Below, in pieces: positions 44,162 to 51,857 of a stretch of DNA of 64,000 nucleotides. The position numbers and the translations under genes were made by a program. The DNA is taken from assembly GCF_003334355.1 (NCBI RefSeq), contig NZ_QOWP01000022.1; one strand, 5' to 3'. The notes beneath the pieces were generated by a model. It was not told the origin of the DNA. It saw only the letters and a program-made list of their open reading frames with translations, and ran no database searches. Numbering within the stretch: position 1 is the first letter of the stretch; the number at the start of each line of letters is the position of its first letter. Origin of the DNA: Escherichia coli. Lineage in GTDB: Bacteria; Pseudomonadota; Gammaproteobacteria; Enterobacterales; Enterobacteriaceae.

Positions 44162-46405
44162 TTAGAAACGGAAGGTTGCGGTTGCAACGACCTGACGTTC
44201 TGCGCCCCAGAAGCAGCCATAAGTGTTAAAGCAGCTGGCGACGTATTCACGATCGAACAGGTTGTTAACATGCAGCGCCACGTTGGAGCCAGCCATGCCG
44301 ACTCGCGCCAGATCATAACGTACTAACGCATCCACGACCGTATAACTTCCCACTTTAAAGGAGTTAGCCGGATCACCATAACTGGAGCCAGTATAACGAC
44401 CACCGGTGCCCAGCGTCAGACCTGAAAGCGGACCGTCAAAGAAGGTGTAGTCAGCCCACAACGAAGCCATGTGTTTTGGCACCTGTGCAGGCGTATTGCC
44501 TTTATAGGTAGTATCGGTGGTGTATTCCGCATCGGTGTAAGTATAAGAACCGACTACGTTAACACTCGCCGACAGCGCCGCTTTCGCTTCGATTTCTACG
44601 CCACGAGCGCGGATCTCGCCACCTTCAACCGAGAAGAAGGAACCCTCAGGGTCCGCCATCAGGTTGTTTGTTTTAGTGAGATTATACACGGCACCAGTAA
44701 CTACAATCGGACGATCTTCCGGTACATATTTCACGCCGACTTCATACTGCTTACCTTTAGACGGTGCGAAAATATTACCATCCTTCCCAACTTGCGAAGA
44801 AGGTTCAAACGATTCGCTATAGCTGAAGTAAGGTGTTACACCATTATCAAACAGGTAGTTAACACCACCACGCCAGGTAAACTGTTTGTCATCACGTTTA
44901 TCGGTCGTCCCGGCAACGCGGTTAAGAGATTCTTGATCTGCCCAGTCATAACGACCGCCCAGGGTGACCAGCACTTTATCCCACTGCGCCTGATCCTGAA
45001 CATAAACGCCCGTTTGTTTCTGCTTATTCAGAATGCGGTAAGGGCCGGAGTTTGCCGGATCTTTGGCATTGAAGTCGAAATCGGTATTCACCGGATTGTA
45101 CAGATTGAGCAGTGGCACAGAGTCGTCGTAACCAAACCAGGCGTTGATGTCATTACGCATACGCATAAAGTCGACACCGGTCAGCAGGGTGTGGTCGATA
45201 TCGCCAGTGGCAAACTTGCTCTGCAACTGGGTATCAACGGAGAAGTTTTGCAGCTTCTCATCATCAACGACGTATTTACGTGCCAGATAATGGCCTTTAT
45301 CCGCTGGCGCTAATGCCGCACACTGTTTGCTGTAAGCATTCGCCGGATCGGAGCAGACGCCGTAACCATAAACGCTGTTTTGCGAGGTTTTGTTTTCAGC
45401 AAAGCGCAGGTTCTGACGCACAGTAAAGGTGTCGTTAAATTCGTGATCGAAGCTGTAGCCGACCATCTTCTCATTACGAGAATAGGTGTTGTTCTTCGCC
45501 CCTTCATTAAAGTCTGTCGGCAGACGCTTACCGTTCGGCAGCGGCTCAACGGTTCCCTCTTTCGGCAACCAGCCGTAATAACCGGTTTCCGGCTCGTTCT
45601 GGAAGTAAGAAAGGAAGGTGAAATTGGTTTTATCATCCGGACGCCAGGTGAACGCCGGTGCAATAGCATAACGCTGCTCTTCTGACCCTTTCTGCTGGGC
45701 ATTGGCAGAACGCGCAAGACCGGTCAGGCGATAAGAGTAAACGCCGTCATCATCCAGCGCATCGCTAAAGTCAAAACCAGTCTGGAACAGGCTGTCAGTA
45801 CCGGCTTTAAACTGAACTTCTTTGAGCGGTTCGGTGGTCGGACGCTTGCTGACCATATTCAACAGACCGCCAGGACTGCTTTTACCGTAAAGCACGGAAA
45901 CCGGGCCACGCATAATTTCAGCGCGTTCCAGCATATACGGATCAATGACCGCATCGTTATAGAAGTTGCCCTGCAACTTCAGGCCATTCAGATAGTTATT
46001 CTGGCTTTGGCCTTCTGCCGCAAAACCGCGAATGATCAGGTGGTCATAGGTGTTGGATGCGCCACGCGTACCAACAGAGACACCCGGCGTGTAGCTAAGC
46101 GCTTCTTTTACCGACTTCGGCTGATGCAGCGCCATCTCTTCGGCGGTCACAACAGAAATAGACTGTGGCACTTTTTGAATCGGCGTATCGGTTTTAGTGC
46201 CGGTAGCTGACTGTCGCGCCGCAATAGTTGCAGCAGGCCCCCATGCGCTTTCTTGCGGCGCAGGTGCAGCGGTAACGGTGATAGTGTCTTCTTTCGGTTC
46301 AACCGCTGCCTGTGCATAAACAGACATGCCGCTAACCGCTGTGGCTACTACAACTGCGATTTTACGCAGTGAGTGTTTTGGCTGAGCAGTTTTGGAACGC
46401 GCCAT
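44162..46405 (-). CDS. fhuA: TonB-dependent ferrichrome outer membrane receptor (phage T1/T5/phi80 receptor)
   Basis: 747 aa ORF with signal peptide and C-terminal ...ATATFRF; recognised FhuA. Confidence 0.97.
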   Translation of the reverse strand: MARSKTAQPKHSLRKIAVVVATAVSGMSVYAQAAVEPKEDTITVTAAPAPQESAWGPAATIAARQSATGTKTDTPIQKVPQSISVVTAEEMALHQPKSVKEALSYTPGVSVGTRGASNTYDHLIIRGFAAEGQSQNNYLNGLKLQGNFYNDAVIDPYMLERAEIMRGPVSVLYGKSSPGGLLNMVSKRPTTEPLKEVQFKAGTDSLFQTGFDFSDALDDDGVYSYRLTGLARSANAQQKGSEEQRYAIAPAFTWRPDDKTNFTFLSYFQNEPETGYYGWLPKEGTVEPLPNGKRLPTDFNEGAKNNTYSRNEKMVGYSFDHEFNDTFTVRQNLRFAENKTSQNSVYGYGVCSDPANAYSKQCAALAPADKGHYLARKYVVDDEKLQNFSVDTQLQSKFATGDIDHTLLTGVDFMRMRNDINAWFGYDDSVPLLNLYNPVNTDFDFNAKDPANSGPYRILNKQKQTGVYVQDQAQWDKVLVTLGGRYDWADQESLNRVAGTTDKRDDKQFTWRGGVNYLFDNGVTPYFSYSESFEPSSQVGKDGNIFAPSKGKQYEVGVKYVPEDRPIVVTGAVYNLTKTNNLMADPEGSFFSVEGGEIRARGVEIEAKAALSASVNVVGSYTYTDAEYTTDTTYKGNTPAQVPKHMASLWADYTFFDGPLSGLTLGTGGRYTGSSYGDPANSFKVGSYTVVDALVRYDLARVGMAGSNVALHVNNLFDREYVASCFNTYGCFWGAERQVVATATFRF

Positions 46406-46478: not shown

Positions 46479-46584
46479 AACGCTGGCGGGTTCGCAAGCG
46501 GTACGCAATCTGAGCGTTCCTGAAGGGTTAATAAACAACCAGATGAAAAGAAAGGGTTAATACTTTGGGTGGGATGTTATTTTA

Positions 46585-46607
46585 CCGGATGGCAACTCGC
46601 CATCCGG
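46585..46607. repeat. perfect 9-bp-arm hairpin downstream of mrcB
   Basis: ccggatggc-aactc-gccatccgg. Confidence 0.45.
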
Positions 46608-46624
46608 TATTTCACGCTTAGACG

Positions 46625-49159
46625 TTAATTACTACCAAACATATCTTTAATCCAACCGGCTACACCGTCGCTGTCTTTCTGCTCTTGCTGAGCAGGTTGC
46701 TGTTGCGGCTGTTGCTGCGGCTGAGAAGACTGATCAAACGGATTGCTTGACGGCTGCTGCTGCATCTCACTCTGCTGGCACAGCGATTGCGGATCGCTGG
46801 TCCAGACCGGCAAGACACGCATGCCACCGCTGCAAACAAAGTTGCCGTCGTAGTCCACGCCCATATCTGCAATATCTTCTGGCGGAACAAGATTCAGCGG
46901 TGTTGGCGTCTGGTTAGCCAGATAACGCTGATAAATCGACATTGCCCCGCTGGCTCCATACAGTTTGGTCGGCTGGTTGTTATCACGGCCTACCCAGGTG
47001 ATGGTCACCGTGCTGCCGTCAATGCCCGCAAACCAGGTATCTACGTTATTGTTAGTAGTCCCTGTTTTCCCTGCCAGATGCAGGTTCGGGTATTTCGCCC
47101 CAAGCTGACGACCCGTACCGCGTTGTACAACCTGCTGCATGGTCCATAGTGTCAGATACGCCGCCTGCGCCGGAACAGCGCGTTCCGCCTGCGGGAAGCT
47201 CTGATACAGCACTTTGCCATCTTCCGCGATTACCGAACGCAGCGCAGAAAGCGGTGCACGGTTACCACCGCTGGCGATGGTCTGGAATGCCTGCGCCACT
47301 TCGATTGGCGTTAAGTTCAACGCCCCCAGCAGCATCGCCGGAACCGGATGCAGCTGATCTTTCGGCACGCCCAGTTTGATCCAGGTCTCCGTAACCGCAG
47401 GCAGCCCCAGTGCCATCCCCAGATTTACCGTCGGCACGTTCATCGAACGGGTCAACGCATCCACCAGCATCACTCTGCCACTTTCGCTATAACGACGATC
47501 ATCGTTCTGCGGTGACCAGACCTGGCCATTCGGCTGACGCAGCGCGATTGGCGCATCCGCAATCCACGTGTTCAGGCGATAGATTTTCGGCTGGCTTAAG
47601 GCAGTCAGATAAGTCGCTGGTTTTGCAAGGGAACCAATCGAACGACGCGCCTGCATCGCACGATTGTAGCCCGCAAACTGCGGCTCAGAACCTCCGACCA
47701 TCGCACGAACTTCACCACTAAAGCGGTCGACGACCACAATCGCGGTTTCCAGATCGCTCAGCTTACGCTGTTTCTTCAGTGCCGGAATGCCTTCCACGGC
47801 GGCTTTTTCTGCCGCGTCCTGGGCCACCGAGTCAAAGGTAGTGAAGATCTTCACGCCGGACAGATCTTTTACCTTATCGCCTAATTTCGCCTGCAACTCC
47901 TGACGCACCAGTTGCATAAAGGCTGGCTGTGGAGAGATTACCCCACCGCGCGGCTGTACGCCCAGAGGACGCGCGCTGAGCATTTCATACAGTTCACCAT
48001 CGATAATCTGCTGTTGTTGTAGCAAACGCAGCACCAGATTACGTCGCTCCAGCGCCAGTTTCGGGTTACGCCACGGGTTGTAGATGGACGCCCCTTTCAC
48101 CATGCCAACTAACAGCGCCTGCTGGTCAAGGCTCAATTCTTCTACCGGGCGACCAAAGTAGTACAGGCTCGCCAGCGGGAAGCCACGAATTTCGTTGTCG
48201 CCGCTCTGACCGAGATACACCTCATTCATATACAGCTCAAGAATGCGATCTTTGCTGTAACGCGCATCCATGATCAACGCCATATAGGCTTCGTTCGCTT
48301 TACGCCAGTAAGAGCGCTCGCTGGAGAGGAACAGGTTTTTCACCAGCTGTTGCGTCAGCGTACTCGCACCCTGCACCGTGCGACCTGCGGTCAGGTTTGC
48401 CAGCACCGCACGTCCGATGGAGTAGAGGCTGATGCCGTCATGCTCGTAAAAATGACGGTCTTCTGTCGCCAGCAAAGTATCCACCAGCAAATCAGGGAAA
48501 CCACTGCGCGGCACAAACAGACGTTGTTCACCGTTTGGCGAGGAGATCATGGTGATCAGGCGCGGATCAAGACGGAAGAAGCCGAACTGACGGTTGTTCT
48601 CCATATTGACGATGGTCGCCAGATGATCGCCATCAAAGGTCAAACGCGCACGCACCTGCCCTTCTTTGCTGTCCGGGAAATCAAACGGACGGCGGATCAT
48701 CTCAATGCTGTTAGCCTGCACGGTAAATTCGCCAGGACGGGTCATTTTCGACACCTGACGATACTGGGTCGCCTCCAGCAGCTTCACCATCTCGTTCTTG
48801 CTGATGGTCATGTCTGGCTCAAGATTGACCATTCGGCCATAAACTGCCGCAGGCAGTTGCCAGACCTTGCCATCAATACGGCTACGAATTTTTTGATCGA
48901 GATAAACGCCGTAAATGGCGATCAGCACGGCAAAAACGATAGCCAGTTTTAGCAGTAGCCATAGCCAGCCGCGTTTGCCACGAGGCTTACGCCCTTTGCC
49001 TTTGCCCTTACCTTTGCGCGGCATCGGTTCTTCATCCTCATAGTCATCATAATCGTCGTAATCATCGTCATCTTCGTAACGACGACGGCTTACCTTTTGT
49101 TTGACCGGACGCGTCGGTTTCCCTTTGCGTCCAATTGGCTCGCGGTCATTCCCGGCCAT
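46625..49159 (-). CDS. mrcB: penicillin-binding protein 1B (bifunctional glycosyltransferase/transpeptidase)
   Basis: ORF recognised as PBP1b; start trimmed to [14 protein letters not shown] (844 aa). Confidence 0.95.
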
Positions 49160-49256
49160 GCTTTTTCTCCGCAATATTCAGGCGCAAAAGCCCGATTTTC
49201 TGTTCTTCTGTTACAAGACAGAAGAAGATATCTCTCAAAATTTGTGCTCGATCGGT

Positions 49257-49345
49257 CCCCTCTCCCTTGAGGGAGAGGGTTAGGGTGAGGGTGAACGTGC
49301 GCGCTGATGCCCTCACCCCGGCCCTCTCCCACAGGGAGAGGGCGA
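49257..49345. repeat. two GC-rich repeat units in inverted orientation (boxC-like) between mrcB and hrpB
   Basis: ccctctcccttgagggagagggttagggtgaggg and its near-identical inverse ccctcaccccggccctctcccacagggagagggc. Confidence 0.6.
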
Positions 49346-49354
49346 AAACCAACC

Positions 49355-51784
49355 TTACGAATACTTTTTCGTCCGTCGCGTCGGTGCAGTGTTTGCCGGG
49401 TCGTCCGGCCAGACATGTTTGGGATAACGCCCTTTCATCTCTTTTTGCACCTCACGGTACGCTCCTTTCCAGAAGGCGCTCAAATCTCGTGTGATTTGTA
49501 ATGGCCTTTGGGCAGGGGAAAGCAACTCCAGCACCAGCGGCACGCGCCCCTGGGCGATCGTCGGATTGGTGGCCTCACCAAACATCTCCTGCATTCTCAC
49601 CGCCAGCGCGGGCGGGTTATCTTCATGATAACGAATGGCGATCCGGCTTCCCGTCGGCACAGTGTAATGCGCAGGCAATTCACTATCCAGACGTTGCTGC
49701 ATTCCCCAATCAAGTAATCCGCGTAGTGCCTGATAAATGTCGAGTGATTTCAGGCCGCGTAGTGAATGCACGCCGGTCATATGTGGCAGCAGCCACGTTT
49801 CCAGCGTCGCCAACAAACTTTCATTATCAACCGCAGGCCAGTCATATTCCGGCAACCACTTTGCGGCGCATAACAAACGCAAGCGTAGCTGTTCCGCTTC
49901 CGCCGTCCAGTTGAGCACGCTTAAACCTTTATCACGGATGCCATTAAGCATCGCCTGATGCAACTCGTCTTCTGACGGTTTCGCCAACGTCTGCACTTTC
50001 ACCGTCAACTGACCGATTTGCAGCCGACGCCAGGCTTTCAGCGTACCTTGCGCGTCATCCCATTCCACGGTGTCAGATTGCTGCACCAGCTGCGGACAGC
50101 GTCGCACTAATTCATCAATATCGACCGGTAGCGCCAGTAAAATCCGCGCATCCGGCGAGGCGCTGCCCTGCAATAATAACGGTGCGATCAACCATTCGTG
50201 GCGGCTTAGCGCGTCGTCGGCATCGAGCATCGCTCCCATGCCGTTTGCCAGTTGATAGCGTCCATCTTGCCCACGGCGGCGAGCAATGCGATCGGCAAAC
50301 GCCCCGGCAAGTAGCGGCGCGATAAGCGAACTGTCTGCCTCACCGCCGCGTACGTTTAAGCGTTTTAACAGTTGCTGACTACGTTGCTGCCAGGCTGGTT
50401 GATTGCGCGAAAACGCCACGCCCAGGTCACTATTGCCCATCCGTGGCGGCTCTTCGAGAATGGCGGCAATTTTTGCCGCGGTAGCAGCTTCGTCGTCGTT
50501 CTTCGCGCTAACCAGCATTGCCGCTAAACGCGGATCGTTACCCAGCGCTGCCATTTTTTGCCCTTGCGCACTAAGCCGTTCACCGTCCAGCGCCCCCAGC
50601 ATCCGTAACAGGCGTTTCGCGGCCAGTAGATTCACCGTTGGCGGTTGATCCAGCCAGCTCATCTGCGTCGGATCGCTGCATCCCCATTGCAGTAATTCCA
50701 TCAGCAAACCGGAAAGATCGCTTTGTAATATTTCCGGTTCACTTTGCGCCGCGGCGCGTTCTGCTTGTTCCTTGGCGATTAAATGCAGGCAGATACCCGG
50801 CTCCAGACGCCCGGCGCGCCCGGCACGCTGCGTCATGGATGCCTGGCTAACGCGTTGAGTAATCAGCCGCGTAAGCCCCGTGCGCGGATCAAAGCGCGCC
50901 ACACGCTCCTGGGCACAATCCACCACCAGACGAATACCTTCGATGGTTAAACTGGTTTCAGCAATATTGGTCGCCAGCACCACTTTGCGCATCCCTTGCG
51001 GTGCCGGGAGGATCGCTTTTCGCTGATCGTTCAGCGACAACGCGCCATACAGCGGGCAGAGCAACACATCACTGCCGATGCGCGAAGCCAGTTGTTCCTG
51101 CACACGCTGAATTTCTCCGACGCCAGTTAAAAATAACAGTAATGATCCACTTTCCTGACGCAGCATTTCGGCGGTGGCAACCGCGACGGCTTCGTCAAAA
51201 CGCTGATGCGCGGGCAGCGGTAAATAACGGCGTTCAACCGGAAACGAGCGCCCTTCTGAGATGACGACGGGCGCTTCTGGCAGCATTTGCTGCAAGCGGT
51301 CGTTGTCCAGCGTAGCCGACATAATCAGCAGTTTAAGGTCATCACGCAGACCTTGTTGCACATCGAGTAACAGCGCCAACGCCAAATCCGCCTGCAAGCT
51401 GCGCTCATGAAATTCATCAAGGATCACCAGTCCAACACCGCTCAGTTCCGGGTCACGCTGGATCATCCGCGTCAGCACGCCTTCGGTAACTACTTCCAGG
51501 CGGGTATTCGGCCCGACGCAGTTTTGCGCACGCATCCGGTAGCCAACGGTATCGCCTGGCTTTTCGTTAAGCAGCTCCGCCAGCCGTTGCGCGACGTTAC
51601 GCGCCGCCAGACGACGCGGCTCCAGCAGGATAATTTTTCCGTTAATGCCGGGATGCGCCAGCAATTGCAGCGGCAGCCAGGTTGATTTCCCGGCCCCGGT
51701 CGGCGCACTTAATAATACCTGCGGCGCACAATCGAGAGCGGTAAGTAATTCAGGTAAGACGGCAGCAACGGGCAACGATGACAC
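49355..51784 (-). CDS. hrpB: ATP-dependent RNA helicase HrpB (GTG start)
   Basis: DEAH-box helicase motifs (GAGKST, DEFHER); start placed at GTG giving MSSLPVAAVLPELL (809 aa). Confidence 0.9.
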   Translation of the reverse strand: MSSLPVAAVLPELLTALDCAPQVLLSAPTGAGKSTWLPLQLLAHPGINGKIILLEPRRLAARNVAQRLAELLNEKPGDTVGYRMRAQNCVGPNTRLEVVTEGVLTRMIQRDPELSGVGLVILDEFHERSLQADLALALLLDVQQGLRDDLKLLIMSATLDNDRLQQMLPEAPVVISEGRSFPVERRYLPLPAHQRFDEAVAVATAEMLRQESGSLLLFLTGVGEIQRVQEQLASRIGSDVLLCPLYGALSLNDQRKAILPAPQGMRKVVLATNIAETSLTIEGIRLVVDCAQERVARFDPRTGLTRLITQRVSQASMTQRAGRAGRLEPGICLHLIAKEQAERAAAQSEPEILQSDLSGLLMELLQWGCSDPTQMSWLDQPPTVNLLAAKRLLRMLGALDGERLSAQGQKMAALGNDPRLAAMLVSAKNDDEAATAAKIAAILEEPPRMGNSDLGVAFSRNQPAWQQRSQQLLKRLNVRGGEADSSLIAPLLAGAFADRIARRRGQDGRYQLANGMGAMLDADDALSRHEWLIAPLLLQGSASPDARILLALPVDIDELVRRCPQLVQQSDTVEWDDAQGTLKAWRRLQIGQLTVKVQTLAKPSEDELHQAMLNGIRDKGLSVLNWTAEAEQLRLRLLCAAKWLPEYDWPAVDNESLLATLETWLLPHMTGVHSLRGLKSLDIYQALRGLLDWGMQQRLDSELPAHYTVPTGSRIAIRYHEDNPPALAVRMQEMFGEATNPTIAQGRVPLVLELLSPAQRPLQITRDLSAFWKGAYREVQKEMKGRYPKHVWPDDPANTAPTRRTKKYS

Positions 51785-51857
51785 AAAACGCTCCAGAGGG
51801 TTAACATTCTTCGCGCCACATTGTAGCATCGCGGTAATTCATAACCGAGTGCCTCAC

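Follow-up and report, generated by a model that had tools for sequence, protein, structure and literature searches.

The gene mrcB (ponB), encoding the alpha isoform of penicillin-binding protein 1b (PBP1b), lies at positions 46625..49159 on the minus strand of the 64,000-nt stretch of Escherichia coli DNA analyzed here (contig NZ_QOWP01000022.1 of assembly GCF_003334355.1; hereafter, the window). This is an ordinary E. coli mrcB, and the two disordered ends of its product very probably consist of short conserved motifs joined by low-complexity spacers, whose lengths are varied by slippage. Short tandem repeats, with units of 3, 6 and 9 nt, encode the spacers and slippage would therefore act on whole units: during replication, units would be added or removed, giving rise to harmless in-frame length variants both within E. 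coli and between species.

Distinct putative roles can be assigned to the individual parts of the two ends. The basic peptide of residues 1-27, which is present only in the alpha isoform, would, according to the literature, recruit PBP1b to the division site, probably through FtsA. The acidic block that follows (residues 28-45) may serve as a spacer, and its GA-rich codons may provide an unstructured leader, containing a Shine-Dalgarno (SD) sequence, for the start of the gamma isoform at Met46. The Lys/Gly/Arg block (residues 47-64) would sit against the membrane in both isoforms. At the opposite end of the protein, a Gln/Pro tether (residues 795-829) with an Asn-Pro-Phe (NPF) island would carry a terminal motif of 15 residues for which a short helix is predicted.

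Identification of mrcB and its low-complexity tracts

The coding sequence comprises 844 codons followed by a TAA stop, as defined by translation of the open reading frame and by NCBIfam and Pfam matches. The start codon (ATG, 49159-49157) and the stop codon (TAA, 46627-46625) were read directly from the sequence, as was an SD element, GGAG (49167..49170), separated by a 7-nt spacer from the Met1 ATG (49157-49159). The first-pass annotation of this region had been given without a strand; the gene and all of its features described below are located on the minus strand.

The product matches the NCBIfam equivalog NF007061 with 1731.8 bits over residues 1-843 (cutoff 1120), and the family TIGR02071 (PBP_1b) with 1245 bits over residues 68-795 (cutoff 717.75). 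Pfam domains occur in the order expected of PBP1b, i.e. the N-terminal membrane anchor PBP1_TM (residues 1-79; E 8e-25), UB2H (113-197; E 4e-25), the GT51 glycosyltransferase Transgly (209-379; E 4e-56) and Transpeptidase (473-714; E 5e-24). The chains 3VMA, 3FWL and 5FGZ of the Protein Data Bank (PDB), all E. coli PBP1b, match residues 53-804 of the window product with E = 0 and very few differences, and the exact sequence of this product is present on at least 1,000 public contigs, where it is named E. coli PBP1b. The PBP1b of E. coli K-12 is encoded by the same gene and agrees with the window protein in length (844 amino acids, aa), gene neighbours and N-terminal tail, Met46 included; between the two proteins a handful of residues differ, and nothing of substance.

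The acidic, basic and Gln/Pro-rich strings that had been proposed for the mrcB product are exact and occur at residues 30-44, 49-64 and 800-827, respectively. Their composition is strongly biased against a binomial background drawn from the core of the same protein: Asp or Glu accounts for 13 of 16 residues at positions 29-44 (P 2e-11), Lys or Arg for 10 of 17 at positions 47-63 (P 2e-6), and Gln for 16 of 35 at positions 795-829 (P 8e-11; P 2e-11 for Gln and Pro enrichment of the C-terminal tract). The cytoplasmic tail thus defined alternates in charge, with net values of +8 (residues 1-27), -13 (28-45) and +10 (46-63).

The features of the N-terminal end can be placed on the DNA as follows. 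Codons 1-27 (49079..49159) encode the basic, alpha-specific peptide, identified as conserved in an alignment of 81 sequences and from the literature. Codons 28-45 (49025..49078) encode the Asp/Glu/Tyr block of variable length, delimited by composition, by the alignment and by Tandem Repeats Finder (TRF), which reported a repeat of period 9 with 4 copies, or of period 18 with 2.7 copies, at 49032-49079. The basic juxtamembrane block of Lys, Gly and Arg, with a net charge of about +10 and present in both isoforms, is encoded by codons 47-64 (48968..49021); it contains (GGCAAA)2 and is supported by composition, by the alleles described below and by a TRF repeat of period 6 (4.2 copies, 48993-49017). 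Codons 65-87 (48899..48967) correspond to the predicted transmembrane helix, a segment without a single gapped column in the alignment.

The Gln/Pro-rich tract, a predicted disordered linker in the periplasm, is encoded by codons 795-829 (46673..46777) and was delimited by composition, structural prediction, the extents of the PDB constructs and the alignment. TRF reported no repeat in this C-terminal tract, in which a 9-nt repeat, GCAACAGCC/GCAACAGCA, is visible by eye. This direct repeat spans codons 815-821 (CAG CAA CAG CCG CAA CAG CAA; 46697..46717) and, as the alignment of alleles revealed, is the site of the loss in the shorter tail allele. Synonymous codons are mixed in the tracts (GAT/GAC, AAA/AAG, GGT/GGC/GGG, CAG/CAA), and because of this the perfect nucleotide repeats are only two units long.

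Length polymorphism among E. coli genomes

A search of 5,426 complete E. coli genomes identified mrcB, annotated and present once each, in 5,425 of them. Three of these copies were located on plasmid-typed records, and no match was obtained in the one remaining genome. Representative alleles were translated, yielding a sample of 11 E. coli alleles including that of the window.

The N-terminal region was of full length in 5,055 of the 5,425 genomes (93%). An allele shorter by one Asp (one GAT of GAT-GAT lost; 843 aa) was carried by 180 genomes (~3.3%), and an allele shorter by one Lys-Gly unit (GGCAAA of GGCAAAGGCAAA lost; 842 aa) by 132 (~2.4%); both units were lost in one sampled strain (841 aa). 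At the other end of the gene, the allele lacking 9 nt of the GCAACAGCC/GCAACAGCA repeat was found in 728-776 genomes (13.4-14.3%). This loss converts a ten-residue stretch into QPQQQQP (841 aa) and occurs in BL21 and, among B2 strains, for example in ST131; in the records of BL21, strain C and ST131 that were examined, the C-terminal tail is three residues shorter than in K-12. One Shigella flexneri protein is encoded by a tail allele lacking 12 nt. In each of the E. coli variants found, exactly one unit of a locally repeated sequence is missing and the reading frame is kept; the variants seen are 838-844 aa long.

Two haplogroups, separated by about 120 core positions, are each polymorphic for the 9-nt indel. 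The undeleted window allele differs by 18 nt from the deleted allele of BL21, and the undeleted allele of AST216 by 18-21 nt from the deleted B2 alleles; in the B2 strain E2348/69 the 9-nt tract is likewise undeleted. Such a pattern would be produced either by recurrent events or by short-tract recombination.

The first-pass annotation had suggested that the codon repeats could be prone to slippage, and in-frame length polymorphism of one unit was indeed observed in all three tracts. When their lengths were compared across strains the tracts proved variable rather than invariant, and more than one isoform is on record. What the earlier suggestion had missed was the small size and constant frame of the variation. 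Judged from the alleles, the tract variation appears to be ordinary repeat slippage of in-frame coding microsatellites and not an on/off switch. As in other short microsatellites of this kind, the mrcB indels comprise one unit, arise at perfect two-unit repeats and appear on different backgrounds. The mrcB tracts differ in being very short and interrupted by synonymous changes, and for this reason their variation is limited to one or two units.

Conservation and predicted disorder of the protein ends

From one scan of species-representative genomes, 80 orthologues were obtained; they represent at least 25 Enterobacteriaceae genera, are 79-99% identical and were aligned with the window product (81 sequences). 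Gapped columns make up 82% of the acidic block, 56% of the basic block and 68% of the Gln/Pro tract, compared with 1% of the core (residues 88-780). Across species, the lengths of these three segments range over 14-24, 16-26 and 30-43 residues, respectively, and the Lys-Gly unit is present three or four times in other genera. Nearly all indels are located in the three tracts, which are the only indel-tolerant parts of PBP1b.

The segments bordering the tracts behave differently. Residues 1-27 have 7% gapped columns and a major-allele frequency of 0.91, the last 15 residues have a frequency of 0.95 (0.94 in the core), and NPF (codons 806-808; 46736..46744), nearly invariant in the 81-sequence comparison, is present in 79 of the 81 sequences. 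In pairwise comparisons, the synonymous share of codon differences amounts to 83% for codons 830-844, 91% for GWIKDMF and 96% for NPF, as against 80% in the core and 35% in the Gln/Pro tract. Residues 1-27, NPF and the last 15 residues thus match the catalytic core approximately in conservation.

Codon 805 (AGC, 46745-46747), just before NPF, encodes Ser in the window allele and Gly in all 10 other sampled E. coli alleles. Only 291 of the 5,425 genomes reach 99% identity with the window across the C-terminal 231 nt.

A more distant set was composed of 150 representatives of 50%-identity clusters (34-64% identical), of which 110 were full length. The N-terminal peptide together with the acidic block was found in none of the 150 representatives. 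Among 141 homologues, Pfam PBP1_TM matched only 31 sequences, all from Enterobacteriaceae. This restriction of the N-terminal family to Enterobacteriaceae agrees with a published JackHMMER result (PMC13423804; bioRxiv 10.1101/2025.04.02.646830).

In three singletons from metagenomes in the European Nucleotide Archive (P0002-P0004), the N-terminal half is identical to E. coli PBP1b, and the C-terminal half and tail are of the Klebsiella/Raoultella type (MMQQQQLQQQEAKNPFNQSG...); these are either assembly chimeras or natural recombinants. A record titled Chryseobacterium sp. 18061 contains an mrcB of Enterobacteriaceae type, 84% identical to the query and with both tails, and this contig is probably contaminated or mislabelled.

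AlphaFold2, run on a 141-sequence alignment, returned a model with a confident core (mean predicted local distance difference test score, pLDDT, 85.6; predicted template modelling score 0.80). Residues 1-60 and 802-832 were modelled with pLDDT below 50 and no secondary structure. A helix corresponding to the transmembrane segment was predicted at residues 62-95, with pLDDT above 77 from residue 61, and a short one (AGWIKDMF) at residues 834-841, with pLDDT of at least 50 (about 50-70). All PBP1b constructs in the PDB span residues from about 53/58 to 804, and querying the PDB with the sequence of the C-terminal 23 residues gave no match. Neither tail has been seen experimentally in these structures.

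Internal translation start and PBP1b isoforms

An internal Met following the acidic block had been put forward as the possible start of a shorter isoform. This codon is Met46 (ATG, 49022..49024), located directly after the block, and the literature documents the start of the gamma isoform (799 aa) at this position. E. coli makes two PBP1b isoforms, with gamma starting 46 codons further downstream than alpha, and the substitution M46L has been used for alpha-only production (PMC13423804; bioRxiv 10.1101/2025.04.02.646830). The same sources reported that the enrichment of PBP1b at the division site needs the alpha-specific N-terminus, probably via FtsA, and that the first ~14 residues are conserved within Enterobacteriaceae, and proposed that these residues mediate an FtsA-dependent recruitment.

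The sequence around Met46 is consistent with initiation at this codon. An SD-like GAGGA (codons E41-D42; 49035..49039) is situated 10 nt upstream of the ATG, and only two of the 26 internal Met codons, Met46 and Met740, are preceded by an SD-like tetramer at positions -18..-4. With a predicted folding energy of -6.4 kcal/mol, the region from -30 to +20 of Met46 ranks within the weakest 5.5% of the gene's 50-nt windows, and the 27 nt upstream of Met46 are unpaired in the predicted fold. The GA-rich codons of the acidic block may thus double as the leader of the gamma mRNA. Met740 (46940-46942), which lies deep in the transpeptidase domain, also has an upstream GGAG and a weak fold (-6.9 kcal/mol); to our knowledge, no isoform starting there has been described. 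A third PBP1b band, beta, is ascribed to proteolysis of alpha (by OmpT). Earlier papers on the isoforms, cited in the recent ones, are Kato 1984, Broome-Smith 1985 and Chalut 2001.

At the position corresponding to Met46, 65 of the 81 Enterobacteriaceae sequences have ATG, eight have GTG (Klebsiella pneumoniae, for example) and the remaining eight have a codon that is not a start (for example, Kluyvera intermedia). A start codon (ATG or GTG) is thus kept at this position in 73 of 81, and the GAGGA motif is present in most of the species. To judge by this alignment, the second start is widespread, but not universal. That each of the eight sequences with Val at this position uses GTG was considered as a sign of selection for a start codon; the argument was rejected as weak, since no Val codon other than GTG can be reached from ATG by a single mutation. 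In one genome (NZ_CP130447.1), the match to the mrcB 5′ region begins at query base 12, ~30 nt upstream of the ATG, and therefore the upstream leader would be interrupted or replaced in that strain.

A conserved C-terminal motif on a variable tether

The Gln/Pro-rich tract had been taken for the end of the protein. The tract itself is real, but the protein ends 17 residues beyond the string at residues 800-827, and the actual terminus is a conserved short motif on a variable tether (codons 830-844; 46628..46672), defined by conservation and by the helix predicted at residues 834-841 (46637-46660). An extension of our preferred explanation, rather than a replacement for it, is that this motif is a tethered functional element whose reach is set by the Gln/Pro tract; we consider this possible, though on balance doubtful. 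The element could take the form of a short amphipathic helix lying on the membrane face, like the anchors of PBP5 and PBP6 or the MinD targeting sequence, or of a short linear motif docking onto a periplasmic partner.

Its core-like conservation (0.95; 83-91% synonymous) immediately after a hypervariable linker argues for such a role, as does the modelled helix at the end of a disordered tether. Endings of the form W-x-x-x-hydrophobic-F are also found in many distant proteobacterial homologues: the pattern [W/F]x2-3[hydrophobic][F/L/W/M] occurs within the last 14 residues of 43 of the 110 distant full-length representatives (e.g. NWFERLFGG, KSWWQRLFN and SWFGRLFGG), compared with 2.3% of control windows from the same proteins, and the alignment consensus of the distant homologues keeps W....F at the end. 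The nominal P value for this pattern overstates the case, because the pattern was chosen after inspection of the data.

Further support comes from the resemblance of G-W-I-K-D-M-F-G to the MinD targeting sequence KGFLKRLFGG, and from a weak Pfam match to FtsA_C (E 0.006; eight members at E ≤0.001). In PBP5, an amphipathic helix at the C-terminus holds the protein to the outer face of the inner membrane. In common with the anchors of PBP5 and PBP6 and the targeting sequences of MinD and FtsA, PBP1b has, after a flexible segment, a short hydrophobic/aromatic extreme C-terminus for which AlphaFold2 predicts helix formation. It differs from them in that PBP1b already possesses an N-terminal transmembrane anchor. 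Moreover, the motif is shorter (8-10 residues, with a predicted helix of 8, compared with 18 in PBP5), and its net charge is about zero, unlike that of the cytoplasmic targeting sequences. Within the tail, the motif has the highest hydrophobic moment (0.36-0.47), a value that 16% of shuffles nevertheless reached; because its amphipathicity is not distinctive in this respect, we retain the membrane-anchor idea only as a lead. The confidence of the predicted helix is modest and the helix is docked to nothing in the model, and constructs without the tail are enzymatically active and have been crystallised.

Another class A PBP offers a partial parallel. As related in PMC10216114, an extracytoplasmic disordered region of Bacillus subtilis PBP1 was reported to direct the enzyme to wall gaps (Brunet et al. 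2022), a role known only for B. subtilis. The window PBP1b likewise has a low-complexity extension, predicted to be disordered, after its transpeptidase domain; as far as this account of the B. subtilis protein goes, both enzymes carry a C-terminal extension of this kind outside the cytoplasm. The E. coli tract differs in being shorter, Gln/Pro-rich and terminated by a conserved motif.

No paper on a C-terminal motif, disordered tail or amphipathic helix of PBP1b, and no experiment on membrane binding by the motif, was found in the open-access literature, the only literature searched, so that this absence is weak evidence. We know of no experiment on this motif. Tentatively, and with the chances rather against it, the last ~15 residues might constitute an undescribed functional element, i.e. 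a short helix on a flexible tether contacting the membrane face or a periplasmic partner, with NPF perhaps providing a second contact.

Alternative explanations

The tails might instead be functionless low-complexity sequence outside the folded enzyme, drifting by slippage. Both have been removed in every solved structure without loss of the fold, they are predicted to be disordered, their lengths vary within and between species, and the N-terminal family is restricted to Enterobacteriaceae. However, the published requirement of the alpha-specific N-terminus for recruitment to the division site already contradicts this explanation for the N-terminal part. In addition, residues 1-27, NPF and the last 15 residues are under purifying selection like that acting on the core, and the charge blocks and the Gln/Pro-rich composition persist in at least 25 genera despite sequence change. 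We therefore regard the absence of function as improbable.

A contingency (phase-variable) locus, in which the tandem codon repeats beside the two start codons would switch PBP1b or one isoform on and off through their observed length polymorphism, is rejected as extremely improbable, because all variants seen are in frame: they are full length, and the units are 3, 6 or 9 nt, or 12 nt in a single Shigella allele. Moreover, perfect repeats do not exceed two units, the N-terminal length is the same in 93% of genomes, and repeat changes shifting the frame were absent from the sampled alleles and orthologues.

The reading of the two ends as conserved motifs joined by slippage-prone spacers must nevertheless be set against several points. 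The allele counts derive from BLAST identity bands and sampled rows, not from every alignment, and ~58 genomes for the N-terminal region and up to 48 for the C-terminal region fall outside the counted allele classes. All 11 sampled E. coli alleles and the 80 species orthologues are full length and in frame, but out-of-frame alleles were not searched for systematically. The data on the 9-nt indel cannot separate recurrent slippage from short-tract recombination. As regards the internal start, gamma cannot be universal because eight of the 81 species have no start codon at the Met46 position; furthermore, GAGGA follows in part from the coding of Glu-Asp, and some species without the internal start have it as well.

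Genomic context of mrcB

In the window, mrcB is preceded by hrpB (49355-51829, minus strand) and followed by fhuA (44162-46405, minus strand), and the order hrpB-mrcB-fhuA is common to the window, K-12 and O157 records. The B2/ST131 records carry a fimbrial operon (fimbrial protein, chaperone and usher) directly after mrcB, at the place occupied by fhuA in the window, K-12 and O157, and the similarity of the B2 records to the window ends at the mrcB stop codon. In the BL21 derivative BL21-RIPL, the annotation downstream of mrcB shows a truncated fhuA pseudogene and, after it, IS3 transposase and rbsD fragments.

The spacer between hrpB and mrcB contains a GC-rich palindromic element (49258-49343), with 27-nt arms that are 81% complementary and nested perfect 10-nt inverted repeats, CCCTCTCCCT/AGGGAGAGGG. 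The spacer is ~195 bp long with this element and 93 bp long without it, as in AST216, O7:H15 ST70, ETEC4067 and the B2 strains. The element looks like a small intergenic repeat or mobile element.

A hairpin is located at 46583-46606, 19 nt 3′ of the mrcB stop codon and on the mrcB strand. It has a perfect 10-bp stem (CCGGATGGCA/TGCCATCCGG) and a 4-nt loop, is followed by TAAAATAA with no T run, and was not called by the terminator scan. Scans of the mrcB region for promoters and terminators gave nothing exceeding the shuffled expectation. In a search of mrcB and its surroundings against Rfam, the sole match was a chance one to mir-197 on the intergenic palindrome, and no structured or known RNA family was identified.

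Implications for PBP1b biology

PBP1b, its two isoforms and its disordered N-terminus were already established, and a recent publication describes how the alpha N-terminus contributes to division. The present analysis adds population-level numbers and indicates that the tracts alone tolerate indels, changing by single repeat units. The tract alleles described here are useful background for typing or engineering mrcB.

The sole loose end of note is the conserved C-terminal motif on its variable tether, which constitutes a modest lead, not a finding. All structural and most biochemical work on PBP1b has used constructs without the C-terminal region, and if this motif is functional, the standard truncated constructs would have missed it.

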